A stretch of 64,000 nucleotides of DNA from SAR324 cluster bacterium (GTDB taxonomy: Bacteria; SAR324; NAC60-12). Of the stretch, positions 15,107-33,398 are shown piece by piece; the first letter of the stretch is position 1, and each line of letters begins with the position of its first letter. The position numbers and the translations under genes are program-made. The stretch covers positions 1,165-65,164 of the forward strand of contig JACNJW010000035.1 in assembly GCA_014382365.1 (NCBI GenBank), written 5' to 3'. Under the pieces are notes generated by a model. It ran no database searches. It had not been told where the DNA came from and was given only the letters and a program-made list of their open reading frames with translations.

Positions 15107-15934
15107 ATGAGTGAGACCAAGCCCCCTTCTGATTTATCCGCAAGAGTCAAAACCGGGATTCCACTGGCTGCAGGAATTATACTGTTGCTCTTTACGCCAA
15201 CTTATATTATTGGTCTGATTGTGCTTGTTGTGGCTTTCATTGGAGCACAGGAACTTACCGGGATGCTGTCTGCTAAAAGTGGCAAAGCTGAAACAGTGAC
15301 TCTCCCGGAGTGGTTGTTACCAGGAACTGCTGTACTGATGGGGCTGGGAGCACTGGCCGGTGAAACCGGACTTCACGGGGCCTTGCTGCTCAGTGCTCTG
15401 GGCTGGATATTTTATGAACTGGTTTTCACACCAAAAAGTGAACTATCCAAACTGTCCACACTGGGTTTCGGTATGTTTGGTATGGTCTGGGCGGTCTGGA
15501 GTGTTTTACACATTACACTGATTAAAACACTTCCGGATGGAACTGCTTTACTGTTCTATCTTTTACTCGTAATCAGTTTCAGCGACATCTTTGCTTATTT
15601 TGGCGGAAAACGTTTTGGTAAATCTTTGCTTGCTCCGAACATTAGTCCAAAAAAAACCTGGGAAGGCAGTTTTTTTGGAATAGTGGGAGGAGGTCTAGTT
15701 GGTGCGGTTTTTGGCGAGCTGACAATGTCAATGTTCTGGCTTTATGGTTTTGTCCTGGCCATGCTGCTGGCAGTTGTTGGACAACTTGGTGATTTAGTTG
15801 AGTCAAAAATAAAACGGCTCTGTGATGTCAAAGATTCTGGAACACTATTGCCCGGACATGGCGGCATCCTTGACAGGATTGACGGACACATGCTTGCTGC
15901 ACCGGTCTTTTATTATTTGCTGCAACTCGGATGA
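15107..15934 (+). CDS. cdsA: Phosphatidate cytidylyltransferase
   Basis: 275-aa polytopic membrane protein with CdsA C-terminal motifs. Position between uppS and dxr. 4-bp overlap with dxr. Confidence 0.75.
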   Translation: MSETKPPSDLSARVKTGIPLAAGIILLLFTPTYIIGLIVLVVAFIGAQELTGMLSAKSGKAETVTLPEWLLPGTAVLMGLGALAGETGLHGALLLSALGWIFYELVFTPKSELSKLSTLGFGMFGMVWAVWSVLHITLIKTLPDGTALLFYLLLVISFSDIFAYFGGKRFGKSLLAPNISPKKTWEGSFFGIVGGGLVGAVFGELTMSMFWLYGFVLAMLLAVVGQLGDLVESKIKRLCDVKDSGTLLPGHGGILDRIDGHMLAAPVFYYLLQLG

Positions 15935-17184
15935 AATCCTCTGAAAGCACTTCAAACTGTCAGCTAACTCCAGCCTCAGTTCCTGCCAAAATAACGGTCC
16001 TTGGAGCAACCGGTTCGATTGGTCTCAATACACTCGAAATAGTTCGGCAGTTTCCGCAAAAATTTCAAATTGAAGCCTTATCCTGCCGCAATTCTATTGA
16101 GATCTTGGTTGAACAGATCAAAGAATTTAAACCTCGGCTGGCATGTGTAGACAACAGCAAGCAGGCACGTGAGCTGCGTGATGCTTTTCATAACGACGGC
16201 TCCGGATCGGAAACTGAGTTTGTCTGGGGTGTTGAAGGATTAATGCAGATTTCCAGTGCTCCTGAGGTAGATTTGGTTGTGGCTGGAATTGTTGGTGCTG
16301 CAGGACTAAAGCCCACATTTTCTGCAGTCGAAGCCGGAAAAACGGTGGCTGTAGCAAACAAAGAACCGCTGGTAATGGCTGGAGAGTTATTTGTACAGAC
16401 AGCCAAAAAAACTGGCGCAAAGATCTTGCCAACTGACAGCGAACACAACGCTATTTTCCAAGCACTGCACAACGAACCTGTTGAACGTGTGGCCCGCTTA
16501 ATTCTGACTGCTTCCGGAGGCCCCTTCAGGGATCGCTCTCTGGCGGAATTTGAACAAATTACACTTGCTGAAGCACTGGACCACCCAAACTGGGAAATGG
16601 GACAAAAAATAAGCATTGATTCTGCCACAATGATGAACAAGGGTCTGGAAATTATTGAGGCACACTGGCTATTTAATGCACCGGTTGAAAATATTGATGT
16701 GGTGCTGCATCGTGAAAGTATAATCCATTCCATGGTTGAGTTTGTGGACGGATCTTTTTTGGCACAAATGGGATTACCTGATATGAAGGTTCCAATCGCC
16801 TATTGTCTTGGCTGGCCAGAACGTCTGCCTATGAAAATTCCCCGCCTGGATCCACTCTCAATGAATACACTCCATTTTGAAAAAATTGATCCGCAACGAT
16901 ACCCGTGCCTTAACCCTGCCATCGAAGCAGCCAAGCAGGGAGGAGCAGCACCAGCTGTTTTGAACGGCGCCAATGAAACGGTTGTGAGCGCCTTTTTGAG
17001 TGAAGAAATCCGTTTTGTAGAGATTGCTAAAATTATTACTGCTGTAATGCAAAGCCTGAAAGAGGCGACAATGCAAGCAGATCTGCCTGATTATCTCAGG
17101 GAAATCTGCACACTTGAAGATGCAGAACAAGCTGATCAATGGGGACAGGAACAAGCCGGCAATATGCTGGAACAGATTAACTAG
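15931..17184 (+). CDS. dxr: 1-deoxy-D-xylulose-5-phosphate reductoisomerase
   Basis: ITVLGATGSIG NADPH-binding motif and Dxr catalytic-region conservation. Confidence 0.85.
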   Translation: MKSSESTSNCQLTPASVPAKITVLGATGSIGLNTLEIVRQFPQKFQIEALSCRNSIEILVEQIKEFKPRLACVDNSKQARELRDAFHNDGSGSETEFVWGVEGLMQISSAPEVDLVVAGIVGAAGLKPTFSAVEAGKTVAVANKEPLVMAGELFVQTAKKTGAKILPTDSEHNAIFQALHNEPVERVARLILTASGGPFRDRSLAEFEQITLAEALDHPNWEMGQKISIDSATMMNKGLEIIEAHWLFNAPVENIDVVLHRESIIHSMVEFVDGSFLAQMGLPDMKVPIAYCLGWPERLPMKIPRLDPLSMNTLHFEKIDPQRYPCLNPAIEAAKQGGAAPAVLNGANETVVSAFLSEEIRFVEIAKIITAVMQSLKEATMQADLPDYLREICTLEDAEQADQWGQEQAGNMLEQIN

Positions 17185-17207
17185 TTGCATTTAAATCATA
17201 GGAATAA

Positions 17208-17594
17208 TTGAGTTCATCTAATTTAGTATTAACTGTCTTGAAAGAGACTTATACCATTCATAAGCTTGAGCGTAACACTACCTTGCCGGAAGTGTTGACT
17301 GAGTGTGAATTTTACAGTCTGAGCAAAACACAGCAAGAATTATCTCTGGTTTGTTCAGAACAAATTTTTATTCAAAGTGAAAACAGCAGCTCAGACTGGA
17401 AATGTCTGAAAGTAGCAGGACCGCTCGACTTTAATCTGACTGGTATACTTGCTGGACTTTCTGATACACTGGCAAAAGCAAAGATCAGTATCTTTGCCAT
17501 TTCTACATTTAACACAGATTACATTTTGATTCAAAAACAAGACCTGGAAGCTGCTCAAACTGCACTTATCAGTCAAGGATATCAGTTTAAATAA
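17208..17594 (+). CDS. Small ACT-domain-like hypothetical protein
   Basis: 128 aa. ACT-like beta-alpha-beta-beta-alpha-beta pattern. Conserved position between dxr and rseP. Confidence 0.35.
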   Translation: MSSSNLVLTVLKETYTIHKLERNTTLPEVLTECEFYSLSKTQQELSLVCSEQIFIQSENSSSDWKCLKVAGPLDFNLTGILAGLSDTLAKAKISIFAISTFNTDYILIQKQDLEAAQTALISQGYQFK

Positions 17595-17621
17595 ACGTAA
17601 CCATTCTTTTTTTAGCTTATA

Positions 17622-18938
17622 ATGACTACCATTTTATCATTCCTAGCAGTGCTTGGAATTCTGATTTTCATCCATGAACTCGGTCACTATCTCGCCGCCC
17701 GCCATGTAGGAGTACGCGTAGAGGCTTTCTCAATCGGCTTTCCGCCAACAGCATGGGGAAAGCAGATTGGAGAAACTGAATACCGTATTTCGTGGGTTCC
17801 TCTGGGAGGTTATGTCAAATTATTTGGACAGAATGTTAGCGATGAAAATCCGGATGACCCCACAAATTATGCGGCAAAATCAATATTTCAACGGCTTTAT
17901 ATTCTTGTTGCAGGACCGCTGATGAATCTATTGTTTGCCTTAATCATTATGCCACTGGTTTTTTGGATTGGGATGGATGTTCCTGCTTATTTAAATGAGG
18001 TTCCACGCATTCAAAATATCCTAAGCGGAGGCTATGCTCAAAAATTAGGAGTCCTTCCCAATGATGAAATTATAGCGGTGAATGCTAACCCTGTTAAAAA
18101 CTGGGAAGAACTGCATAGTACGATGGGGCAAATTTCACCTGCTGACAGTTTCAGCCTGGAAGTTTATCGAGGTGGTAATTCAGTGGCTCTTGAAGGCTCT
18201 GCTCATGAAATGCTCCGAGCCGGATCAATGGGTTGGTCACCTTTTATGGCACCGGTTGTTGGAGGATTTACCAAACTATCTCCTGCACAACAAGCCGGAA
18301 TCCGAGTAGGTGATCTAGTTTCTGCTATCAATAACAGTGCAATTCAGGACTGGAGTGAGATCTCACCGGCAATTCAAACTATCATGAATAGTAAGCTTGA
18401 TTCTGCAAATAATTCAGAAACAAACATTGCTGTTGAATTACAGAGAAATGGTGAGCTTCTATTAGTAGAAGTTGTTCCCTATTTGGAAGAAAATTCACAA
18501 CGCTGGCTTTTGGGCATGAGCATGTCAAAGATTACGCGCTCACACTCCTTTACTGAATCAGTTAAATTGGGAACCTTCCGCTTGTGGTTTCTGAGCAAAG
18601 CTACCTTTGGGTTTCTGGCTCAAATGTTCCAGGGAGAAGGATCGATGGATGATCTTGGCGGTCCGGTCAAAATCGGGATGGTGATTGGTGATGCTGTACG
18701 CAGTGGCTTGGCTGACCTGCTGTTTTTGATGTCATTCATCAGCCTTCAACTTGGTATCTTCAATTTACTGCCGATTCCTGCTTTGGACGGAGGGCATATC
18801 TTTATGTTGTTGATAGAAAAAATAAACGGTGCTCCTCTAAGTGTGGCTTTACGCGAAAGATCTCAGATGCTTGGTTTTTCTGTCCTAATCTCTTTGATGA
18901 TTTTTGTTACATGGAACGATTTAGTGAGCTTGCTCTGA
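17622..18938 (+). CDS. rseP: RIP zinc metalloprotease (site-2 protease) RseP
   Basis: HELGHY zinc motif, PDZ region, and C-terminal LDGG motif. Confidence 0.8.
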   Translation: MTTILSFLAVLGILIFIHELGHYLAARHVGVRVEAFSIGFPPTAWGKQIGETEYRISWVPLGGYVKLFGQNVSDENPDDPTNYAAKSIFQRLYILVAGPLMNLLFALIIMPLVFWIGMDVPAYLNEVPRIQNILSGGYAQKLGVLPNDEIIAVNANPVKNWEELHSTMGQISPADSFSLEVYRGGNSVALEGSAHEMLRAGSMGWSPFMAPVVGGFTKLSPAQQAGIRVGDLVSAINNSAIQDWSEISPAIQTIMNSKLDSANNSETNIAVELQRNGELLLVEVVPYLEENSQRWLLGMSMSKITRSHSFTESVKLGTFRLWFLSKATFGFLAQMFQGEGSMDDLGGPVKIGMVIGDAVRSGLADLLFLMSFISLQLGIFNLLPIPALDGGHIFMLLIEKINGAPLSVALRERSQMLGFSVLISLMIFVTWNDLVSLL

Positions 18939-18956
18939 ATGTACCTCCATTTTTAC

Positions 18957-18985
18957 TTGACAAGTTTTTAACTTTACTATAAATT
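18957..18985 (+). promoter_or_regulatory. Candidate sigma70-type promoter (TTGACA, about 15-17 nt spacer, TATAAA) for the repeat-protein gene
   Basis: The two hexamers are read directly from the sequence. A strong SD (AGAGGAGA) precedes the ATG at 19153. Confidence 0.3.
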
Positions 18986-19152
18986 TCACTAACGATCATT
19001 TTCATATTGAAAGATGACTGGCAACCGCAGATTATGAAAGGCTATGGAAGTGGATACTGCGGTAAGTATAATCCACTTTCATAAAGACAATAAACTACTC
19101 TTCATGAGCAACTTGGAGAGATATCTTTTTAACGCAAACAGAGGAGACTAAA

Positions 19153-20151
19153 ATGGCAGAAGAAACAACAGGCGGTGAGCCGCAAGCAGGACCGGGACCG
19201 GATGCAGGTCCTCCTCCAGCTGGAGAAGTAAATATAGACGGAAACACACTTTCTTCAGATGGTGAAGGCAACATGAGCTTTGAAGGAGCTGATGGGGCAC
19301 ATGGTGAAATGAGTGCAGACGGATCTGCATCATTTCAAGGACCGGAAGGTTCAGGAATATCTGGAGAAATGAATGCTGATGGTTCAGGATCATGGACTGG
19401 TTCGGACGGTACTACTACTTCTTGGGAAGCCGGTGAAGCTCCTCCTAATGACTTGCCCGGAATGGAAGCACTTCCTGATATGGGAGAAATCGCCAACTCC
19501 CCTGAAGCAGTAGAAGCTTTTGGCGGCCCTCCTCCGGGAATGATGGATGGCGAACCTGGGATAGGTCCAATGCATGGAGACATGGAAGGAGTGACAGGTG
19601 ACGTATCTGGCTGCTCGGGTGACATGACTGGTGTAACTGGAGACGTGTCTGATTGTTCTGGCGATATGTCAGGATGCCAGGGTGATATGACTGGCTGCGA
19701 AGGCGACATGTCTGGAGTCACAGGTGATGTTTCAGATTGTTCTGGAGACATGACTGGTTGTCAGGGTGACGTATCTGGCTGCTCTGGCGACATGACTGGT
19801 TGCGAAGGTGACATGACTGGAGTCACTGGTGACATGGGGCCATACGCTGGTGACATGACTGACGTGACTGGTCCTCCACCAGCTGAAATGATGGGTGCTG
19901 AGGGCGACCAAGGAATGGGTGCCATGGATCAAGCATTTGCTGACCCAGGAATGGATCCTGGAATGGCTCCTCCAGGGGATGATCCAATGGGAGCTGCACT
20001 TGACGATTCTGCTGCGGCAAGTGATGCCGGTGGTGCAGCTGGAGGCCAAGGTCCAGGACCAGACCCAATGGCTGATATGCCTGACCCAGGGATGGATCCT
20101 GGAATGGATAAAGAGCCTGAAGACGACCAGGATGGTGGTGCTATAGGTTAA
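19153..20151 (+). CDS. Acidic Gly/Asp/Met/Cys/Pro-rich repetitive protein with 14 tandem heptads GD(M/V)xG(C/V)x; no recognisable signal peptide
   Basis: 332-aa ORF with its own promoter-like hexamers and a strong SD, followed by a hairpin. No family assigned. Confidence 0.55.
   Translation: MAEETTGGEPQAGPGPDAGPPPAGEVNIDGNTLSSDGEGNMSFEGADGAHGEMSADGSASFQGPEGSGISGEMNADGSGSWTGSDGTTTSWEAGEAPPNDLPGMEALPDMGEIANSPEAVEAFGGPPPGMMDGEPGIGPMHGDMEGVTGDVSGCSGDMTGVTGDVSDCSGDMSGCQGDMTGCEGDMSGVTGDVSDCSGDMTGCQGDVSGCSGDMTGCEGDMTGVTGDMGPYAGDMTDVTGPPPAEMMGAEGDQGMGAMDQAFADPGMDPGMAPPGDDPMGAALDDSAAASDAGGAAGGQGPGPDPMADMPDPGMDPGMDKEPEDDQDGGAIG
19576..19872 (+). repeat. 14 tandem copies of a 21-nt (7-codon) repeat inside the ORF, imperfect at the DNA level
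   Basis: Protein residues 142-240: GDMEGVT GDVSGCS GDMTGVT GDVSDCS GDMSGCQ GDMTGCE GDMSGVT GDVSDCS GDMTGCQ GDVSGCS GDMTGCE GDMTGVT GDMGPYA GDMTDVT. Copies differ mostly by synonymous substitutions. Confidence 0.8.
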
Positions 20152-20168
20152 TACCAGTTGAGATCATG

Positions 20169-20202
20169 TAAGTGGTGCACTAAATTTTTTTTGCACCACT
20201 TA
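20169..20202. terminator. Perfect 11-bp inverted repeat TAAGTGGTGCA-N12-TGCACCACTTA (hairpin; candidate intrinsic terminator/attenuator or regulator site)
   Basis: Read directly. Lies 18 nt after the stop of the repeat-protein gene and 120 nt before the ABC transporter gene. Loop and 3' flank are T-rich. Confidence 0.4.
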
Positions 20203-20321
20203 TTTGACTATTTTATTATCCCAAACAAACCCACAACATGTGTGCCATTTAGAGAGATACACACCTCTTCGTTTTTCTTCAAAAATACTAATCCTAAAAC
20301 CTTCTTAAAAATAAATCCACT

Positions 20322-22547
20322 ATGTTTGGCAAGAAAAAAAATGAAATTCTTGTTGATCACAGGCTGGCTTATTGCGTCTCTTTGACCACCAGAAGGCATG
20401 GAGTATATATAAATCGTGAGGAGGTAGAAAAAAAATTCCCTGAAGACGATCCTCCAAAAACCACTAGAGAATTAAATGCTTTTCTCGCAGAGAGAAAACT
20501 TGAAGCAAATCCAATAAATATTTCAACAGATGATTTCAAGGATAAAAATTTCGTATTTCCCTGTGCAGTTCCATTTACGAATGGTCAGTCAATCATAGCA
20601 TTAAGTGTACTGAAGAAAGACGATGATTTTTTTGTTAAGTTTCTTGACCCGTTAGACCCTCAAGCCAGGCAACAGGAAGTTGGAATAAATGAATTTGAGA
20701 AACTTTGGAAAAATATTGTTTTTTCAGTAAATGCACTAAGAGGTACTGAAAGTAAAGAAAGATCTTTTGATTTAGAATGGTTCCTTCCTGAATTATGGAA
20801 ATGCAGATATATGCTTCTTTGTGCTTTCATAATTTCTATTCTACTGAATATATTATCATTTACTCCTATAATTTTCATACAGATAGCCTTAGATAAAGTT
20901 GTAGGATATAAAGCTATTTCTACTTTATATGTACTGACAGCAGGAGTTGTTGTTGCACTAATATTTAATGCAATAATGGGTTTTATTCGCGATTACATTT
21001 TCAATTACATAGGAGATATACTTGAGTCCAGAATTGCAACTGATGTCTTTGACAAATTGCTGGGACTACCCTTAATAGAAGTTCAAGGAGAAAACATAAC
21101 TAAATTTGGGGGCTCAATGCAATCAATTACAGCCTTAAGGAATACTCTGGTCATGAGAGTGTTTAAGGTAGTTTTCGATTTGACTGCTGTACTCGTTTTT
21201 GTCCCAGTTATGTTTGCATATAATTTCCTGATGGGAATAATAGTGCTTGGATTTTCTCTGTTGATGGGTTTTAACAAAATCATTTTTAACAATATTGCAG
21301 GTAAATCTCCAGAAATACTAAACGAAGTGGAAAGTAGTAAAAACAGTCTGGTTCGCGAAACCCTGCATGGAATGACAATGCTCAAAGAGTTTGAAGAGGA
21401 AGAATCGGAGAGGAAAAATTGGCGAAAATCTGCTGCTGCTTCAATTATGTTAAGATCAAAGAAAAATCAGGTAAACAGCGCATCCACCGAGATTAACAGC
21501 TTTCTTCAACAAGCAATGACAATTGTAATTATCTTTACTGGAGTACAATTAGTTTTTGCTGAGCAGCTTTCTGCTGGTTCAATCATAGCGATTAATATGG
21601 TCGCTGGAAAATTAACCTCTCCTATTATTGCTGCAATCACATTATTTGGTGAAAGAACACAAATATTAAACCTTATCTCTCAAATAGGTGAGATTTGGAA
21701 TAAGGGAAAAGAACAATTGGGAGCAGGTGTTCACTCAGCCATAAGTGGAAAATATACTTTTGATAAAATTTCAATGAGTTTTGGAGATGTAAAAGCATTA
21801 AACAAAATATCTTTTGAGCTAACACCAAAATCCAAAGTTGGAGTAGTGGGTCCTACTGGAGCAGGCAAAAGCACATTGTTAAATATTCTTGCAGGAACAT
21901 TTCATCCTACAGAAGGTAGAATGGAAATAGATGGAGTAGGAATAAATCAATATGATTTATCATATTACCGTTCGCAGGTTATGCTGTTGGATAAGAAACC
22001 CATATTTTTTAAAGGTACAATAGAAGACAATATGTCCCGGGTGACACACAACATTGGTAAAAATGAACTTGCACACATTTTTGCTTTAACAGGATTTGAT
22101 GAACACCTACAAAAACTGCCTGAAGGTATTCATACAACAATTGATGAAACTGCCAGCCAATTGGCTGGTGGAGCTGCAAGCCTGCTTGCACTTTCAAGGG
22201 CTTTGCTTGCAAATCCAAAAGTCTTGCTTTTGGATGAGTTTGCAGATTCACTTGATATTGATACCAGAATTAAATTACAAGATAACTTTTCTACTATCGC
22301 CAGTGAAAGAACCGTGGTCGATGCTCAAAATGTAATAAGTCATGAATTAGATTCAATATCGAATTATGATAAAATTATTGTCTTAGATGGAGGTAAAGTA
22401 GTTGGACAAGGCAAGCATGAGCAGCTGCTTGTTAGTTGTGAAATTTATAGGCAAATGCTGGAAAAAGAAAAAAAATTGAGTGCAATTGGTGAATCGAAAA
22501 ATACAGAAACAAAAGAAAATCCTCCTGTGGATCAAGAAAATGCTTAG
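20322..22547 (+). CDS. Type I secretion/bacteriocin-type ABC exporter with N-terminal C39-peptidase-like domain, 6-TM exporter domain and C-terminal ATPase
   Basis: 741 aa. N-terminal ~150 aa resembles the C39 Cys-box (LAYCVSLTTRRHGVYINREEV). Then a type I exporter TMD. Walker A GPTGAGKST, Walker B LLLDEFADSLD, H-loop SHE. The signature motif reads LAGGAASL rather than LSGGQ. Confidence 0.75.
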   Translation: MFGKKKNEILVDHRLAYCVSLTTRRHGVYINREEVEKKFPEDDPPKTTRELNAFLAERKLEANPINISTDDFKDKNFVFPCAVPFTNGQSIIALSVLKKDDDFFVKFLDPLDPQARQQEVGINEFEKLWKNIVFSVNALRGTESKERSFDLEWFLPELWKCRYMLLCAFIISILLNILSFTPIIFIQIALDKVVGYKAISTLYVLTAGVVVALIFNAIMGFIRDYIFNYIGDILESRIATDVFDKLLGLPLIEVQGENITKFGGSMQSITALRNTLVMRVFKVVFDLTAVLVFVPVMFAYNFLMGIIVLGFSLLMGFNKIIFNNIAGKSPEILNEVESSKNSLVRETLHGMTMLKEFEEEESERKNWRKSAAASIMLRSKKNQVNSASTEINSFLQQAMTIVIIFTGVQLVFAEQLSAGSIIAINMVAGKLTSPIIAAITLFGERTQILNLISQIGEIWNKGKEQLGAGVHSAISGKYTFDKISMSFGDVKALNKISFELTPKSKVGVVGPTGAGKSTLLNILAGTFHPTEGRMEIDGVGINQYDLSYYRSQVMLLDKKPIFFKGTIEDNMSRVTHNIGKNELAHIFALTGFDEHLQKLPEGIHTTIDETASQLAGGAASLLALSRALLANPKVLLLDEFADSLDIDTRIKLQDNFSTIASERTVVDAQNVISHELDSISNYDKIIVLDGGKVVGQGKHEQLLVSCEIYRQMLEKEKKLSAIGESKNTETKENPPVDQENA

Positions 22548-22564
22548 GTTTGGGAAATAACTAA

Positions 22565-24313
22565 ATGACTGTAGCAACAAACACATTGAAACCCCAATTA
22601 TTAGTGCTGAAAAAAGGGGAGTATGTCTTTGAAGAAGGAGATGAAGCAATATTTGCTTATGTTCTCACTGAAGGCACAATTGAGATTGTTGCAATTATCA
22701 AAGGAGAAGAACTGGTTCTGGGAAAAGTAGAAAAAGGGACTATTTTTGGAGAAATGGCAATAATTGATGGCTTCCCGAGAAGCGCATCAGCACGTGCTGC
22801 CACTGCTTGTAAAGTACAAGAAGTTGGTCATAAAGAATTTCTTAATTATATTTCTAAAAAACCGGATGCTGCATTCCAAATAATGGGTAGACTATCTGGT
22901 TTTGTCAGGTCTGCTGATAAAAAAGCAAGTGAAAGTTTTTTGCTTCGTAAAACAGGTGTAAGTGAGGAAGAAGAAGATGGAAATAATGATAAGACCGACA
23001 TCGTTGCTGTACATAATTTTGAAGACACAGAGTCGATTTATGCCAGACCTCCTGCTAAACCTGTCATCGTCACTGCAGTCAGTTTGATCCTATTCATGTT
23101 GGTCATGACCCTCTGGGCATCTTTTTCTTTTGTTGATAAAACAGTTTCTGCACGTGGTAAATTCACAAATACTGCACCTAATATTGAAATTCAATCTACT
23201 GGTAGTTCAATTATTGAGGAATTAAATTTAGAACGAGGTCAATTCATTACAAAAGGAGAAACAGTTGCAAAACTTGATGGCACTGTTGTAAATGCAAATC
23301 TCAAAATTACCAGAGACAAAATATATGCAGTAAAAAATAAAATTTTGCGCCTTGAACTTCAAAAAATATCAATCTTACAAAAATCCTTAAATGAGGAATC
23401 TCTGGTTGAACTGGACAGTATTAACAAAGAAATATTAAACAGACACTTTGATGAATTTATGATTACAATGAAAACATTTTCTTCTGATCTTTTACGGTTA
23501 GAAACAGAAATTGTTTCAATGTCTGCAGATAAAGATTTAATTCGTGACCAGCTGGATATAAAAATTAAAATTGAAGATGGAAAAAAGAAGTTGTTTGAGA
23601 AAAATGTTGGTTCATTAATGGACACATTGAGTTCTACTGATCAAAGAATTTCTGTGAACCGTCAATTATTGTCAACAACTGGAAGTATCAAAAAACTCAA
23701 ATCAGAAAAAACAGCACTTGATGACCAGAGATCCTCTTATTTGACTGGAGAATTAGCAGGAATCGCAGTAGAACTTTCTTCTTTTAATGATCAATTACTT
23801 CAATTAAATGAGGAGTTAATTAAAAATGAATTAGAGAGAAGCAATTTATTTATTAAATCTCCAGTTGAAGGTGTTGTCTTAAATTTGCCTACAATTACGA
23901 TTGGATCTCTCATAAATAAAGGAGAGCCTATAGTAACATTAGTAAGAGCCGGATTACCCCTTGTTTTAGAGATTGATGTAGATCCAAAAGATGCCAGTGA
24001 TTTGTATAATGGGAATCCTGTTTCAGTCAAAATTGATGCCCTGCCATTTCAACAGTTTGGAGACCTGGCAGGAACCCTGGTCTATATTTCAGATGATACT
24101 GTAGAAGAATCCCTTCAGGGAGAATCCGGTGCTTTTTATCGTGGAAGAGTTCATGTTAAAGATTCTGAAATTATGGGATTGCCTGAAGAATTCGATTTAA
24201 CACCAGGTATGCTGGCAACTGCAGATTTAAAAGTAGGCAAAAGAAGATTGATTACATATTTTACAAATCCAATTCTAAAATCACTTTCAAGTGCTATGCG
24301 TGAACCGGATTAA
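22565..24313 (+). CDS. HlyD-family membrane fusion protein with N-terminal cyclic-nucleotide-binding (CAP-family) domain
   Basis: 582 aa. Residues ~15-120 carry cNMP-binding motifs (GEYVFEEGDEA...FGEMAIIDG..RSASARA). One TM (VIVTAVSLILFMLVMTLWASF). Long coiled-coil and a C-terminal HlyD beta-barrel region (...PGMLATADLKVGKRRL...). Confidence 0.7.
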   Translation: MTVATNTLKPQLLVLKKGEYVFEEGDEAIFAYVLTEGTIEIVAIIKGEELVLGKVEKGTIFGEMAIIDGFPRSASARAATACKVQEVGHKEFLNYISKKPDAAFQIMGRLSGFVRSADKKASESFLLRKTGVSEEEEDGNNDKTDIVAVHNFEDTESIYARPPAKPVIVTAVSLILFMLVMTLWASFSFVDKTVSARGKFTNTAPNIEIQSTGSSIIEELNLERGQFITKGETVAKLDGTVVNANLKITRDKIYAVKNKILRLELQKISILQKSLNEESLVELDSINKEILNRHFDEFMITMKTFSSDLLRLETEIVSMSADKDLIRDQLDIKIKIEDGKKKLFEKNVGSLMDTLSSTDQRISVNRQLLSTTGSIKKLKSEKTALDDQRSSYLTGELAGIAVELSSFNDQLLQLNEELIKNELERSNLFIKSPVEGVVLNLPTITIGSLINKGEPIVTLVRAGLPLVLEIDVDPKDASDLYNGNPVSVKIDALPFQQFGDLAGTLVYISDDTVEESLQGESGAFYRGRVHVKDSEIMGLPEEFDLTPGMLATADLKVGKRRLITYFTNPILKSLSSAMREPD

Positions 24314-24368: not shown

Positions 24369-25742
24369 TCAAGTCAGCCAGACACTCCAATAAGAATAAG
24401 CAAAAACAATAATCAGAAAAATTCCTGCCAAATTAAAGAAAAATCCAAATTTTGCCATTGTTTGTACATTCACCACGCCACTGCTCATCGCAATTGCATT
24501 TGGCGGAGTAGCGATAGGAAGCATGAAAGCATAACTTGAACAAATTGTGGCAACCATCAAAAAAAGCCGAGTATCCAGCCCATTTCTTTCAGAAACTTCA
24601 TAGAGTACTGGCAAGAGCATTGAAATCAGTGCTGTGTTGCTTGTTATTTCTGTTGTAAATGTGACCAGTAAAGCAATGATCAGCAGCAGCAGCAAAGGAG
24701 GAAGAGTTGTTATGCTTGAAAGCTGTTCAGCCAGTACCTGTGACAGTCCTGTGTGTGAGAAGGAGTATGCAATGGAAAAACCTGCACCAAAGAGGAACAT
24801 TATTTCAAAGGGAATTTTTTTGGTATCTTCCCAAACCAGCAGGTTGAATGGAGGAACAAACATCAGCAAACCAAAACTGAGTAGAATTGCTTTTTCGTTA
24901 AGATTCAAACCGGGATAATAAGGTTCTAGTGGTGAATTGGCAAAGAGGAGCAGTACCAGTGCGCCAAGTGTGTACATCAGTTTTTTTTGATCAAAACTTA
25001 AAGCATCCAACGCTTTGACTGAATCCAGTTTTTTGCTTTCAAGTCCAAAGGAGAGAACGAAGGAAACAACAAAAAACATCAACAAGGCCAGTGGTGCCAC
25101 CATTAATACCCATTGAATGAAGGGTAATGTTTCGATGCCCTTATCTTCTAAAACACCATATAAAATCAGATTGGGCGGTGTTCCAATTGGAGTAGTAATA
25201 CCTCCAACACTAGCTCCATATGCAATTGCCAGAGCAAAGCGGATTTTTAGAGTAACATCAGTCGTCAAAAAGAAGGCCAGTGGCATCAGCAATAAAGTCG
25301 TTGTTGTATTTGATAGACAGGAGCTTAAAACACCGGAAGTGATCGAAAGCGCAAAGATCATTCCTCGGGGTGTTTCAGGAAATATCCGCAGCATTTTTGT
25401 GGCAATCACTTTATGCAAACCAGTCTTTTCAACTGCAATCGCCAGCATAAAACCTCCGAGAAACAAAAATATGATTGACTTAGAATAGTTTGGTACGATC
25501 TGGTTGACTTCTGCAATATCAAAAGCTGGAAAAAGAATAATCGGCAAGAGAGATGTAACTCCAAAAGGAATTGCTTCGTTACTCCAATAAATCACCATTG
25601 CGGCAATCAGACTGAGCAGCATTGCCTGAGTATGAATTAAGATCATACTGCTCAAAACATAGATCAGACCTCCAAATGCCAGTCCGCTCAAAATACCAAC
25701 CCAGGAGTGTTTATGCTTGATTCCTTTTGTTAAAATACTCAT
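24369..25742 (-). CDS. DASS/SLC13-family anion:Na+ symporter (ArsB/NhaD permease superfamily)
   Basis: 457-aa polytopic protein with two SNT(T/A) hairpin motifs (LSNTTTTLLLMP; TSNTALISMLLP). Confidence 0.6.
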   Translation of the reverse strand: MSILTKGIKHKHSWVGILSGLAFGGLIYVLSSMILIHTQAMLLSLIAAMVIYWSNEAIPFGVTSLLPIILFPAFDIAEVNQIVPNYSKSIIFLFLGGFMLAIAVEKTGLHKVIATKMLRIFPETPRGMIFALSITSGVLSSCLSNTTTTLLLMPLAFFLTTDVTLKIRFALAIAYGASVGGITTPIGTPPNLILYGVLEDKGIETLPFIQWVLMVAPLALLMFFVVSFVLSFGLESKKLDSVKALDALSFDQKKLMYTLGALVLLLFANSPLEPYYPGLNLNEKAILLSFGLLMFVPPFNLLVWEDTKKIPFEIMFLFGAGFSIAYSFSHTGLSQVLAEQLSSITTLPPLLLLLIIALLVTFTTEITSNTALISMLLPVLYEVSERNGLDTRLFLMVATICSSYAFMLPIATPPNAIAMSSGVVNVQTMAKFGFFFNLAGIFLIIVFAYSYWSVWLT

Positions 25743-30799: not shown

Positions 30800-31786
30800 T
30801 TATTTTTTCCAAAGTAAATATACTTTGGCACTCATGCCTGCCCTCAATTTGTGATCCTTGTTGTCTGCTTTGACAAATATCGGGAAGCGTCCTGTTTCCG
30901 GATCTGCGGACCATGAAATTCGTTCTATTGTTCCAGAAAATTTGGTGTTCTGATAACCTGGTGTAGTAAAGACAACTGACTGCCCCTCACTTATATTAGG
31001 TAGATCTTCTTCTCCCACCTGTATTCCAATTTCCACCTGAGTGATGTCTATAATTTGAAAAAGAACTGCGCCTGGAGTGATCACTTCTCCCTCTTCAAAA
31101 AATTTTGCAGTAATAATTCCTGTAATTTTTGCTTTGATTTGAGTGTCTCCCAGAGTTTCCTCACGAAGTGCAACATCATGTTTAGAACGCTCCACCGCTA
31201 AACGAGCATTTTCCACTCCCAACTGAGCACGCTTAACTTCCTGCTCCGTTCGCTTTAAACCAAGTATAACGTTTTTTAGTGCCAATTCTCCTCGATTGTA
31301 CTGTAACTGCAATGACTCTAATTGTGAACGGGTAGAGGAACCTTGATTAAATAAAGTTTTTTCATCTAACAACCTGCGTTGAATGTCCTTCAAATTTGTT
31401 TCCAAATCTTTGACATTATTAACACTGACTGCAATTTGTACTTTTGCCAAATTGAGTTGTACTTCACGATCAGCCACACTATTTTCATTAACTTTGTGCT
31501 GCAATCGGGTTAATTCCAGTTGCCGTTTCTGTGTTTCATGATGGAGTGTGAGCAGCAACTGATCTTTGGCAACAGTTTGATTCTCTTTTACATGAATAGC
31601 CGTAACTCTTCCGCCAACACTGGCCTGAACTTTCAGGGTTTCTGCTGCCTGAATTATGCCGGAAAGAGAAATTGGATTCTGCACGTAATCTGCAGCTTTT
31701 GTTTCCAGTGAAGTTGCTGACGTTGACAAAGGTAAAACTAAAACTAGCGCTAATGAATTACAGAAAATTTTTAGACGAATAAACAT
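30800..31786 (-). CDS. Efflux/secretion periplasmic adaptor (HlyD/MFP family) with signal peptide
   Basis: 328 aa. Biotinyl-lipoyl-like hairpin, coiled-coil, beta-barrel pattern. Downstream of TolC on the same strand. Confidence 0.65.
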   Translation of the reverse strand: MFIRLKIFCNSLALVLVLPLSTSATSLETKAADYVQNPISLSGIIQAAETLKVQASVGGRVTAIHVKENQTVAKDQLLLTLHHETQKRQLELTRLQHKVNENSVADREVQLNLAKVQIAVSVNNVKDLETNLKDIQRRLLDEKTLFNQGSSTRSQLESLQLQYNRGELALKNVILGLKRTEQEVKRAQLGVENARLAVERSKHDVALREETLGDTQIKAKITGIITAKFFEEGEVITPGAVLFQIIDITQVEIGIQVGEEDLPNISEGQSVVFTTPGYQNTKFSGTIERISWSADPETGRFPIFVKADNKDHKLRAGMSAKVYLLWKK

Positions 31787-31823: not shown

Positions 31824-33398
31824 TTAATTCAACTCGTACTGCTCATAAAATCCTCCAGCCAAAGCCAGTAATTCTACTCGGACTTTCTCTTGACGAATCC
31901 GGATAAGGATTAGCTGCTGTTGTGCTTCCACCACATCCTGTTGATACTGTGAAATTCGATAGCTGGTACTTTTACCTAACTTGAAGCGCTCAATTTCATT
32001 ACGTAACTGATCTTGAGAAAGCAGACTCACTGCTGATGCAGTTGTTTGTTCCTTCTCAATCAAACTCAATGTACGTAATAAAGATTGTAAGTTGACATCC
32101 AACTGAGATTTACGATCCTCTATCTGCAGAATTAGCTGTTGCTGCTCCAGACGTTTGCGCTGGATGTTTTCACTGGTAGCCTGATCTCCCAATGGAACGT
32201 TCCAGGTCAGTGTTGCACTCAAACCATGAAGTTTGCTTTTAGCAAAATCGGCTGTTCCACCAAAAGCACTTTTGCTGTAACCATTTAAGATATAGGACAA
32301 GTTCAAGTCCAGGTTAGTCTTTTGTTTGTTAAATTCCTGTTCCAACTGCTGCCGATTTTGCTCCAATGTAGCTTTTGTCAATCCAATTTGGGAATCGTGC
32401 TGATAGATTTTTTCCAACAGCTCTGTAACATTCTCCGGAACGACAGACTTAGCTCCCGGCTTATCTACTGGAAAAAGACCAACAGGTAAGTTTTTCAAAT
32501 TAAGTGCTGCACGAACCTGATCTTCGACGCGCAGAGCGTCTAATCTTGACGAAAGCAGGCCCTGACGATTCCGCATCAATTGAGTTTCAGTAACCCTGAC
32601 TTCAGTTGAACTCAACATACCTGCCTCAAGTTTTGCCTGATTGTCACGTAATAATTTTTCTGACAAATCTACTGCTTTCTTTTTAACCTCAATAGTTTCT
32701 AATATTCCAACTAAATCCCAATATATTGATGCAACTTGCTTAAGCAGAGACAATTCCGTTTGACTGGTATTCAGCCTTCCTCTGGTCAGACCAATTTCCG
32801 CCAACCGGACTGGTATTTCGTTAAATTCTGTACCCCAATCCTGAAAAATTGGTATCGAAATGCTGCTGGTTAAGCTAACCGTGTTCAGTACATCTCCAGT
32901 AGTTCCAGCAGTAACATCACCACCTAGTTCCGCCTGCGAAAGAGTTGTTGATTTTTTGCTTTTTTCAGAATAAGTCAGGCCATAAGTCAAACCGCTGTCA
33001 GTACGCTGACTGTATGCAGAAGAAAAAGATATGCTGTTGGTACTGCTTCCGCAAAGTTCTGCGGGAGAACAACTTGAAGAGGCGGTTAGAGCTGGGGTAT
33101 TGGAGTAAGCAAAACTCGTTGTAATGCTGGGAGTGTTTCTTTCTTCTGCCGCATTCACGGCACGTTGTGCTGCATCGTTACCAAGTTTTGAGACCTTCAG
33201 CAAAATGCTCCTGTCAATTGCCAGCTGCAATACTAGTTTAAGCGGGACTTCCGCCATTTCGCGGCCGTCCACTGTTATCAAGTTAACCTGTTTCAACAGC
33301 TGGGCAGTTGCAGTCTGTGCATGAACTGGAGCTGTACCTGCAAAGACAAACAACAATAGAAAAAACATTTGTATTTTTATTAATTTTTTCAAATACAT
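31824..33398 (-). CDS. tolC: TolC-family outer membrane channel
   Basis: 524 aa. Signal peptide, two coiled-coil/beta repeat halves typical of outer-membrane efflux proteins. Confidence 0.7.
   Translation of the reverse strand: MYLKKLIKIQMFFLLLFVFAGTAPVHAQTATAQLLKQVNLITVDGREMAEVPLKLVLQLAIDRSILLKVSKLGNDAAQRAVNAAEERNTPSITTSFAYSNTPALTASSSCSPAELCGSSTNSISFSSAYSQRTDSGLTYGLTYSEKSKKSTTLSQAELGGDVTAGTTGDVLNTVSLTSSISIPIFQDWGTEFNEIPVRLAEIGLTRGRLNTSQTELSLLKQVASIYWDLVGILETIEVKKKAVDLSEKLLRDNQAKLEAGMLSSTEVRVTETQLMRNRQGLLSSRLDALRVEDQVRAALNLKNLPVGLFPVDKPGAKSVVPENVTELLEKIYQHDSQIGLTKATLEQNRQQLEQEFNKQKTNLDLNLSYILNGYSKSAFGGTADFAKSKLHGLSATLTWNVPLGDQATSENIQRKRLEQQQLILQIEDRKSQLDVNLQSLLRTLSLIEKEQTTASAVSLLSQDQLRNEIERFKLGKSTSYRISQYQQDVVEAQQQLILIRIRQEKVRVELLALAGGFYEQYELN

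Follow-up and report, generated by a model that had tools for sequence, protein, structure and literature searches.

Does the three-gene locus downstream of rseP in a SAR324 cluster bacterium encode a secretion system together with its own substrate, and if so, of what kind? We analyzed a stretch of 64 kb from contig JACNJW010000035.1 (the window), in which three genes, all read in the same direction, lie between rseP and the gene for a DASS permease. They code for an acidic repeat protein of 332 residues, an ABC exporter and a HlyD-type adaptor, or membrane fusion protein (MFP), which begins with a domain for binding cyclic nucleotide monophosphates (cNMP). Secretion systems of type I (T1SS) are usually described as simple, constitutively competent three-component pumps that are regulated by transcription or by retention of the substrate. 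We consider it probable that the locus encodes a dedicated T1SS of an undescribed subtype along with its cognate substrate, the acidic protein, which we call the cargo. As judged from sequence, this would be a variant of type I secretion that combines a second-messenger sensor on the adaptor, an ABC protein with a degenerate signature motif and a new, unannotated cargo family, rather than a categorically new machine.

A first-pass annotation of the same DNA had proposed a type I-style cassette with an unusual acidic repeat cargo, a hairpin, a C39-like ABC exporter and a cNMP-HlyD adaptor, corresponding to no described system. It had also named what would speak against this: characterized intracellular homologues of the cargo, a CAP-like region that fails to score as a cNMP-binding domain, or conservation of the exporter pair with a different, known cargo in the absence of the repeat protein. 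Its core survives these tests. The three genes are where it had placed them, and profile searches of the three proteins gave matches to ABC, HlyD and cNMP models and none for the cargo. Relatives' loci, mostly metagenomic, are referred to by the labels L001–L104.

The adaptor carries a cyclic nucleotide-binding domain

The adaptor matches PF00027 (cNMP_binding) at residues 14–98 with 67.7 bits, well over the gathering score of 27.5, and TIGR01843 (type_I_hlyD) at residues 168–580 with 257.6 bits against a cut-off of 208.65. Its matches in the PDB are HlyD (8dck_C, residues 166–580) and, in the periplasmic part, LipC (5nen); the N-terminal part matches the sequences of cAMP/cGMP-binding proteins, including PKA-R, PKG, CRP and SthK. 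The polypeptide is laid out as a cNMP domain (residue 14 to about 125), an acidic linker, a juxtamembrane motif, a transmembrane helix (residues 167–185) and the HlyD body (residues 186–582). Given this single helix and the known topology of HlyD, the cNMP domain and the acidic linker are expected to be cytoplasmic and the HlyD body periplasmic. The phosphate-binding cassette, FGEMAIIDGFPRSASA, aligns with IGELGLFEEGQERSAWV of CRP and retains the Glu and the Arg-Ser-Ala (E72/R82/S83 in CRP). The cassette is kept as FGEMA[IL][IL]DGxPRSA[SG]A in almost every one of the 37 family members aligned (25–44% identity). The HlyD juxtamembrane motif (EFxPD..EIE.RP) is kept as well, between the sensor and the transmembrane helix, and since it still follows the cNMP domain, the sensor appears to replace the extreme N-terminal segment of HlyD. 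The N-terminal domain also gives a weak match to TIGR03896 (E 1.2e-3). The whole adaptor is 100% identical to a protein from an NCBI metagenome-assembled genome (MAG) of the SAR324 cluster. The sensor had been placed on the adaptor rather than on the transporter from the start, and correctly so, as PF00027 is matched by the adaptor and not by the ABC protein.

The ABC protein resembles HlyB and has a degenerate signature motif

The ABC protein, the NCBI entry for which bears the name ‘ATP-binding cassette domain-containing protein’, matches the Pfam families ABC_membrane and ABC_tran. It consists of a C39-like domain (residues ~15–140), a transmembrane domain (165–432) and a nucleotide-binding domain (NBD, 493–705), and from residue 15 onward it aligns over its full length, the C39-like domain included, with the HlyB structures 7sgr/8dck (E 3e-75). 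The best NCBIfam models are those of the LssB and HlyB type I subfamilies, which cover residues 14–715 at about half their trusted cut-offs; the scores for TIGR01846 and TIGR03375 are 354 and 361 bits versus cut-offs of 726 and 693. Pfam Peptidase_C39 reaches only a sub-threshold 19.6 bits on residues 16–136 (gathering score 22). Counting from the conserved [RQ]-H-G motif, the position of the catalytic Cys is taken by Arg14 and that of the catalytic His by Ser. Because of these replacements, the N-terminal domain reads, like that of HlyB, as a C39-like domain (CLD) without catalytic function rather than as a peptidase that processes bacteriocins. The C39-like domain of the first-pass annotation is therefore upheld, its bacteriocin-type export is not.

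The NBD has its Walker A (GPTGAGKST) and Walker B (LLLDE) motifs and the H-loop His, but the signature reads LAGGA and the Q-loop Gln is replaced by Lys. In an alignment to HlyB of 66 ABC proteins that are partners of cNMP-HlyD adaptors, LSGGQ is missing from 65 and the Q-loop Gln from 62, with variants such as LAGGA/LAGAG (SAR324), LSQSH, LPNSY and LSQGT. Walker A is intact and the Walker B Asp-Glu mostly so, and some are devoid of the H-loop His. The sole canonical protein among the 66 belongs to L016, a locus with HlyC and an RTX-like protein; that of Chitinimonas (L104), outside the alignment, is canonical too. Since these ABC proteins are half-transporters, both ATP sites would be non-canonical. 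Such a clade-wide loss of signature and Q-loop is unusual for homodimeric exporters.

The cargo is an acidic repeat protein without a signal peptide

The 332 residues of the cargo comprise 75 Gly, 44 Asp, 33 Pro, 32 Ala, 30 Met, 23 Glu and 8 Cys, with a single Lys and no Arg, so that 67 acidic residues face one basic residue. The N-terminus (MAEETTGGEPQAGPG...) displays no basic or hydrophobic features of a signal peptide. In the central part, 14 heptads of the form GD[MV][ST][GD][CV]x follow one another in perfect seven-residue register, and Tandem Repeats Finder (TRF) finds periods of 21, 42 and 84 nt in the gene. All eight Cys sit in heptads, at a position where V, A or C alternate among homologues. 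The heptads, the acidity and the missing signal peptide thus stand as first annotated, and only the description of the protein as Cys-rich was overstated. Toward the C-terminus follows a module (GMGAMDQAF ... DDPMGAALDDSAAAS ... acidic tail ... DDQDGGAIG) that is kept in the SAR324 homologues and is probably, to judge from this conservation, the region of an uncleaved type I secretion signal. The lack of a signal peptide, the very acidic composition, the Gly/Asp repeats and the conserved C-terminus are hallmarks of T1SS substrates.

No match to the cargo was found in Pfam (E ≤ 10), NCBIfam or the PDB, and its 53 metagenomic homologues are all without annotation; characterized intracellular relatives did not turn up in these searches. 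The AlphaFold2 (AF2) model has a mean predicted local distance difference test (pLDDT) score of 57, with 65–75 in the N-terminal D-G region and 70–80 in the heptads. It shows the D-G module as beta hairpins with a period of about nine residues, the heptads as a strict seven-residue beta pattern and the C-terminus as disordered. A Foldseek search of the model against the PDB returned nothing at E < 0.01, only generic matches to single-layer beta-sheet, MORN and tailspike proteins.

The exact cargo protein is not in a collection of 15 billion sequences in which the ABC protein and the adaptor of the same contig are present, and seven of nine cargo-family ORFs (open reading frames) tested, among the window cargo, L009, L041, L063, L066, L076 and L099, are likewise missing from it; gene callers either overlook these ORFs or pick other start codons. 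On the opposite strand, the cargo gene contains ORFs at 19335–19751(-), 19732–20049(-) and 19823–20068(-), with translations such as ...SPVTPDMSPSQPVISP...; they are by-products of the tandem repeats and not genes.

Acidic proteins accompany cNMP-HlyD adaptors in marine bacteria

An exhaustive HMMER search for the adaptor covered 1.84 billion representatives, and the top 150 clusters at 50% identity were inspected. About 50 of these are full-length cNMP-HlyD fusions, aligned from query residue ~10–20 to 581. Named members come from SAR324, from MAGs of Gammaproteobacteria, Burkholderiaceae and Betaproteobacteria TMED156, and from the cultured Chitinimonas koreensis (WP_028446597.1). The system is thus a widespread, mostly marine clade and not unique to the genome of the window.

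Metagenome contigs from JGI were scanned with an alignment of diverse cNMP-HlyDs, yielding 80 loci with 34–94% identity to the seed and a total of 610 kb. In these, all six frames were screened for acidic ORFs poor in Lys and Arg (at least 80 residues, D+E > 14%, K+R < 4%, G > 9%). Of the 37 ORFs found, 36 lie within 1.5 kb of an ABC–adaptor pair; with a near-identical filter, the cargo is the only ORF to pass in the window. Where the locus extends at least 1 kb to both sides, an acidic neighbor is present in 17 of 28 cases (16 of the cargo family, one RTX), and counted by adaptor clusters (single linkage, 70% identity) it is present in 11 of 17. On the pair's own strand the neighbor is found either upstream or downstream; it may also be downstream and convergent. 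A position as variable as this argues for a functional link rather than for gene order that was inherited. The comparison of gene neighborhoods that had been suggested earlier shows the repeat protein together with the cNMP-HlyD pair in relatives, and the usual companions of the pair are homologous acidic proteins, not a different, known cargo.

Not all loci conform to this pattern. RTX-like neighbors occur at L059 and L071, and no adjacent candidate was seen at L029–34, L043, L064/74, L075 and L094. At L016/L017, from a coral metagenome, and at the Chitinimonas locus, a conserved protein of ~107 residues is encoded upstream of the ABC gene, and L016 in addition has HlyC and a divergent RTX-like protein of 1501 residues. 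The ABC proteins of L016 and L104 have canonical NBDs. The cNMP-HlyD family thus comprises at least two subtypes, the window belonging to the one with acidic cargo. The ~107-residue protein (L016 5018–5768; L104 5418–5738) lies directly 5' of the ABC gene, has the pattern MxxxxF[IV]DGV.E[IV]S[IV]..GVVRVD[LM]F[ST]Y... and could act in the canonical-NBD subtype either as a small substrate or as an accessory factor. One adaptor cluster has a different acidic neighbor, downstream and convergent, at L067 2740–3540(-), L068 3950–4366(-) and L069 8732–11749(-); these proteins contain MORN-like G-x-G-x-Y/F repeats and end in '...DADGYEDD.S..(P/L)IDDPLKLP(E/P)E', and they may represent another type of cargo.

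The cargo family is modular

The order cargo–ABC–MFP is kept in the SAR324 loci L009, L010, L011 and L012, in which the identity of the exporter proteins falls to 70–74%; the cargo proteins of L010, L011 and L012 are 59–61% identical to the window cargo in the C-terminal half. The members of the family have 250–480 residues and are built from modules. Three types of N-terminal module occur: a helical repeat of about 45 residues ('..AF.EA.EGGA.P..AF.AA..AA') in one to eight copies; a Met-rich module ('MFP..PPMPPE...GMEAF..AM..GGDMGAAFEAMGDVMGP') common to the SAR324 loci L009/L001 and the non-SAR324 loci L018/L024/L042/L047; and the D-G nonamers of the window cargo, which are also found at L010, L078 and L079. 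Several SAR324 homologues start with M-x-E-x-x-T-G-G-E. The heptad array is optional: it is present in SAR324, L041, L053 and L055, its copy number varies and some homologues are without it. By sequence, then, the family would be defined by its C-terminal module and its Lys/Arg-poor composition and not by heptads and thiols.

The C-terminal module of the family reads 'GMGAL.DALGG ... ADAAIGAAMD.AM.QGGAP ... acidic ... D..SAGMG*', and the corresponding region of the window cargo can be aligned with the C-termini of members from other lineages. A hidden Markov model (HMM) of it, built without SAR324 sequences, matches the SAR324 proteins of L012b (1.8e-11), L011 (7.6e-5) and L010 (1.9e-4). In a set of 5.8 billion proteins, a profile of the module found only 22 short, unannotated fragments and no new context, and ten diverse members of the family gave no Pfam match. 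BLASTP of the acidic protein of L018 against the window cargo and against P0015 was non-significant with composition adjustment; homology is for this reason shown through shared modules, such as the N-terminal module of L009, and through profile methods.

Two observations concern the DNA of these genes. In some SAR324 genomes, two cargo paralogues are separated by a duplicated fragment of the 3' end of rseP (residues ~390–438; L002 8808–8954, L012 3051–3188), with the junction in the 5' arm of the hairpin that follows the cargo gene; such a layout points to a segment of rseP 3' end, leader and cargo gene that was duplicated in tandem, and the window has one copy. Metagenomic contigs, moreover, very often end in or beside the heptad-repeat gene (L001, L002, L004–L008, L053, L058, L077 and L083), L008 starts with an assembly palindrome (1–110), and at L003 (7857–8669) a cargo fragment is fused head-on to a truncated ABC gene, which was considered as an inversion and judged to be a chimeric assembly. 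The repeat gene breaks assemblies.

Expression signals and gene context

The promoter-like hexamers, the strong Shine-Dalgarno (SD) sequence and the hairpin of the first-pass annotation are all present, yet the promoter-like matches in this AT-rich region are not above chance (20 versus 16.6 expected from shuffled sequences), and TTGACA-17-TAAATT as promoter of the cargo gene is suggestive only. The SD sequence AGAGGAGA is found at 19141–19148. Relatives of the cargo gene all have strong SD sequences; the leader itself is not conserved in L002, L009 and L011. Within the leader, at 19025–19079, two overlapping stems (ACCGCAG/CTGCGGT and AAGTGGAT/ATCCACTT) could form a pseudoknot-like or mutually exclusive arrangement. 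They were considered as a riboswitch or attenuator, an idea that we dropped in view of the lack of conservation, and an Rfam scan of 18800–20400 at E ≤ 1 gave no match for either the leader or the hairpin.

The hairpin between the cargo and ABC genes has a stem of 12 bp, a loop of 12 nt and a folding energy of −16.8 kcal/mol, and the region has a z-score of −3.1 relative to shuffled sequences. Its stem, AAGTGGTGCAC/GTGCACCACTT, is kept in seven SAR324 loci in which the flanking intergenic DNA has diverged. Compensatory changes are found in 2 of 11 pairs. Where single bases of the arms differ, in L011 and L012, they still pair as U.G/G.U in the sense strand but not in the antisense strand, whose fold is no more stable than that of the sense strand. 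On account of these sense-only wobbles, compensatory changes and sense-strand stability, the hairpin appears to be a transcribed RNA structure. It is consistent with partial termination as well as with stabilization of the cargo mRNA at its 3' end, either of which would raise expression of the cargo over that of the exporter. A second small hairpin (AGAGAG...CTCT) followed by GTTTTTCTTC, at 20250–20280 and about 45 nt upstream of the ABC start, is kept in L004–L009 and could be an extra attenuator or part of the translation-initiation region of the ABC gene.

The coordinates of all features are collected in Table 1. The permease gene lies between the adaptor gene and a T2SS-F gene in the lineage of the window only; because the T2SS-F gene directly follows the adaptor gene in L004, L005, L006 and L012, the permease is a lineage-specific insertion. 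GC content at third codon positions (GC3) is 0.26 in the ABC gene, 0.22 in the adaptor gene and 0.33 in the cargo gene, versus 0.40 in dxr and 0.38 in rseP (15931–18938), and the low values of the ABC and adaptor genes may reflect a foreign origin or different codon constraints.

Table 1. Features of the secretion locus and its surroundings, in window coordinates
Feature	Position	Strand	Basis
rseP	17622–18938	+	Pfam Peptidase_M50 and PDZ
Promoter-like site TTGACA-17 nt-TAAATT	18957–18985	+	Consensus scan, 10/12 matches
Leader of cargo gene, ~165 nt, including SD	18986–19152	+	Sequence reading
Putative cargo gene, 332 aa	19153–20151	+	ORF; metagenomic homologues; synteny
Cargo N-terminal module, about seven D-G-x repeats of 9–10 residues (aa 26–94)	19228–19434	+	AF2 and relatives
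Cargo array of 14 heptads (aa 142–239)	19576–19869	+	Residue register, TRF
Cargo C-terminal module	19870–20148	+	Conservation in homologues
Intercistronic hairpin, then interrupted U-rich tract to ~20221	20168–20203	+	RNA folding, conservation
ABC gene, 741 aa	20322–22547	+	Pfam, NCBIfam, PDB alignment
Adaptor (MFP) gene, 582 aa	22565–24313	+	Pfam, NCBIfam, PDB alignment
DASS/CitMHS permease	24369–25742	-	Flank 3' of adaptor gene
RND-type adaptor next to OEP gene	30800–31786		
Candidate TolC-like outer-membrane partner (OEP)	31824–33398	-	Pfam OEP

Proposed mechanism and alternatives

In the mechanism that we propose, the acidic protein would be made in excess over the exporter, with the hairpin terminating or stabilizing most transcripts after the cargo gene. 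The C39-like domain and the conserved C-terminal module of the cargo would mediate its recognition in an unfolded state, after which the protein would be threaded C-terminus first through the channel of ABC protein, adaptor and TolC-like protein into seawater. Outside the cell, the Gly-Asp heptads and D-G nonamers would adopt beta structure, probably together with cations such as Ca2+, as RTX repeats do. In HlyD, the extreme N-terminal segment couples substrate engagement to the recruitment of TolC. Because the cNMP domain is found in place of this segment, binding of cAMP or cGMP would most likely gate assembly or opening of the channel and so tie secretion to the second-messenger state of the cell. 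As to the extracellular role of the cargo, our best guess, weakly held, is the binding of cations or trace metals, for which its 30 Met, its acidic residues and some Cys might serve. A candidate for the outer-membrane partner of the ABC–MFP pair is the OEP protein encoded about 7.5 kb downstream next to an RND-type adaptor, a neighborhood that recurs in L004 and L005; in L020 and L104, an OEP-like gene adjoins the ABC–adaptor pair itself.

Several points weigh against this reading. The candidate TolC-like partner is encoded next to an RND-type adaptor and not next to the pair. With its non-canonical signature and Q-loop, the ABC protein cannot be assumed to carry out normal ATP-driven transport. 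The long loop and weak U tract of the hairpin make efficient termination doubtful. The cargo has no Pfam match to RTX nonapeptides at E ≤ 10, in a library that includes an RTX-repeat model, and the confidence of its predicted structure is moderate, with no significant fold match. The C-terminal HMM of the family detects the window cargo by hhalign only (E 1.5e-3, probability 17%), so that its membership appears to rest partly on transitive homology through L010, L011 and L012 and on the N-terminal module of L009. The acidic filter selects by composition, and among the 80 loci there are several near-duplicates; no acidic ORF adjoins the pair in 11 of the 28 complete loci, and a minority of relatives stand next to RTX/HlyC or the ~107-residue protein instead. 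A further point, from HetC, concerns the ligand of the sensor and is taken up below.

How do these points bear on other explanations? That the 332-residue ORF is merely an open frame created by tandem DNA repeats, and no real gene, is extremely improbable: although the repeat DNA opens long reading frames on either strand (138 and 105 residues for two in antisense) and the exact protein is missing from the large collection that holds its neighbors, the 53 homologues are conserved at the protein level, non-repetitive N- and C-terminal parts included, the strong SD sequence stands at the right spacing in every lineage, heptad variation stays in frame, and the protein modules are kept across many lineages despite diverged DNA. 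We give just as little credence to a bacteriocin-type system with a peptidase-containing ABC transporter (PCAT), in which the cargo N-terminus, MAEETTGG|E..., would be a double-glycine leader cut by the C39 domain. The ABC protein has partial matches, far under the cut-offs, to the bacteriocin/PCAT models TIGR01193, TIGR03796 and NF045998, and the M-x-E-x-x-T-G-G-E start recurs in SAR324, but the catalytic residues are absent, which led us to reject this reading. The sub-threshold Pfam score and the full-length similarity to HlyB and LssB argue in the same direction, the eight-residue ‘leader’ is far shorter than known double-glycine leaders and is missing from P0001, P0002 and all family members outside SAR324, and a cargo of 250–480 residues is no peptide. 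More weight is due to the idea that the pair exports something else, be it a small protein, an RTX protein whose gene lies elsewhere or a substrate other than protein, and that the acidic protein is an accessory or unrelated neighbor such as a cytoplasmic chaperone, a cation buffer or a regulator. The RTX-like and HlyC neighbors at L016/L017, L059 and L071, the ~107-residue protein, the complete loci without an acidic ORF and a transport mode left open by the NBD motifs all fit this idea, which we nonetheless find improbable. The loci linked to RTX or the ~107-residue protein include the only two canonical NBDs found, even though RTX-adjacent L071 is degenerate, whereas the acidic proteins cluster in the degenerate-signature subclade that includes the window. 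They also bear every generic hallmark of a T1SS substrate and share a C-terminal module that is conserved; moreover, the C39-like domain, which the ABC protein has retained, serves in HlyB to bind large unfolded substrates. Less probable still, and frankly speculative, is a mechanistically distinct machine for the export of polyanions, an idea raised by the degenerate ATP sites and a cargo with about 67 negative charges and one positive. Translocation across the inner membrane could then be largely electrophoretic, driven by the membrane potential (negative inside), with the nucleotides bound by the NBDs and the cAMP/cGMP bound by the six N-domains of the adaptors serving as gates and not as motor; once in seawater, the polyanion, with its many Met and Asp and in some cases Cys, would scavenge or buffer trace-metal cations.

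If the locus is nevertheless a T1SS with the acidic protein as substrate, as we propose, two of its parts could still work differently from what is outlined above. The CAP-like domain of the adaptor might bind another ligand (ppGpp/GTP, like HetC, or 2-oxoglutarate, like NtcA) or serve solely for dimerization or as a scaffold, which would leave secretion outside cyclic nucleotide control. The CRP/FNR superfamily is diverse in its ligands, and HetC, with a cNMP domain recognized by Pfam, did not respond to cAMP or 2-oxoglutarate and bound GDP, GTP and ppGpp (Kd 59 µM; PMC10986499). No nucleotide cyclase gene was found among the window ORFs scanned, a scan of the window that was not exhaustive. 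We think this alternative rather unlikely, since the conserved Glu and Arg-Ser-Ala of the cassette, which contact the ribose and the cyclic phosphate in CRP and PKA, are typical of true cNMP binders, and the best sequence matches in the PDB are cAMP/cGMP-binding proteins. The question is closer for the hairpin, where something other than a terminator or attenuator, namely a stabilizer of the mRNA 3' end, a processing site or a protein-binding inverted repeat in the DNA, falls only somewhat short of an even chance. Loops of 10–14 nt and a U tract that is interrupted or absent in L010, L011 and L012 are in its favor, a simple terminator scan did not call the hairpin (12-nt loop, interrupted U-tail), and the arms are more conserved than pairing alone needs. 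Against a DNA operator, however, stand the arm differences that give G.U/U.G on the sense strand only and the lengthening of the stem by a compensatory change in L012. A stabilizer and a partial terminator would have the same outcome, an excess of cargo mRNA over exporter mRNA.

Significance

If the proposed reading is true, the sensor on the adaptor would switch a T1SS directly and post-translationally, at the place where HlyD is thought to couple substrate to TolC, and the trigger of channel assembly would become experimentally approachable by addition or removal of a ligand. The relative from Chitinimonas koreensis, which is cultured, offers an entry point for the adaptor sensor, at a locus without the acidic cargo. 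The system is abundant in uncultured ocean bacteria, including SAR324, among the most abundant deep-ocean lineages, and MAGs of marine Beta- and Gammaproteobacteria. As the cargo family is unannotated, its genes break assemblies and many of its ORFs are absent from public collections, potentially abundant secreted marine proteins would currently be invisible.

Comparison with known systems

In the literature searched, on cNMP domains with HlyD or T1SS and on type I secretion in SAR324, we found no description of the adaptor fusion. The E. coli haemolysin system, HlyB–HlyD–TolC with its substrate HlyA, shares many features with the locus. In both, the ABC half-transporter bears at its N-terminus a C39-like domain that is non-catalytic, HlyB being the best full-length match in the PDB, and the HlyD-family adaptor has a single N-terminal transmembrane helix. 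In both, too, the gene for the substrate, a putative one in the window, lies directly upstream, followed by a hairpin, and encodes an acidic protein rich in Gly/Asp repeats and without a signal peptide. Between hlyA and hlyB there is a terminator, which raises expression of the substrate over that of the exporter. In contrast to the haemolysin system, the extreme N-terminus of the window adaptor is a cNMP-binding domain, the ABC protein has LAGGA for LSGGQ and no Q-loop Gln, and the cargo has seven-residue GD repeats and D-G nonamers instead of GGxGxDxUx, is almost free of Lys and Arg and is not accompanied by an acyltransferase (HlyC).

With RTX proteins in general, the window cargo has in common short Gly-Asp tandem repeats N-terminal of a C-terminal signal (a proposed one in the cargo), acidity, the lack of a signal peptide and a place beside a HlyB/HlyD-type exporter, and its AF2 model gives regular short beta strands at the repeat period. 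It differs in having repeats of seven residues rather than nine, eight Cys in the heptads and an extreme depletion of Lys and Arg. A reading of the cargo as an RTX protein was rejected on the basis of repeat length and the missing Pfam match.

Legionella LssB/LssD (TIGR03375) is a HlyB-like system that exports the large repeat protein RtxA (PMC6959600). Its family model is the top NCBIfam match for the window ABC protein and covers residues 14–703, the N-terminal domain included; yet the score comes to about half of what the family cut-off demands, LssD has not been described as carrying a cNMP domain, and the cargo is unrelated.

A CRP-type domain attached to, or encoded with, an ABC/HlyD export system is also known from HetC and the cyanobacterial exporters, including the TIGR03896 family (‘bacteriocin-type transport-associated protein’). 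HetC of Nostoc PCC 7120 carries its cNMP-like domain, which is essential and bound ppGpp, GDP and GTP but not cAMP, on the ABC protein (PMC10986499). In cyanobacterial bacteriocin clusters, CAP_ED belongs either to the ABC protein or to a protein of its own, type_1_hlyD being the only domain of HlyD (PMC4558948). The window sensor, in contrast, is on the adaptor, and whereas those exporters have an active C39 peptidase and peptides with double-glycine leaders, the corresponding window domain appears to be non-catalytic and would serve a cargo family of 250–480 residues.

Control of a T1SS by a nucleotide second messenger has a precedent in LapA/LapBCE with LapD–LapG, where c-di-GMP controls a T1SS adhesin by way of a receptor that is a separate protein of the inner membrane and of a periplasmic protease whose target is the retained adhesin. 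There, as would be the case here, a nucleotide second messenger governs the fate of a T1SS substrate. No sensor is fused to the adaptor in the Lap system, and messenger and cargo both differ.

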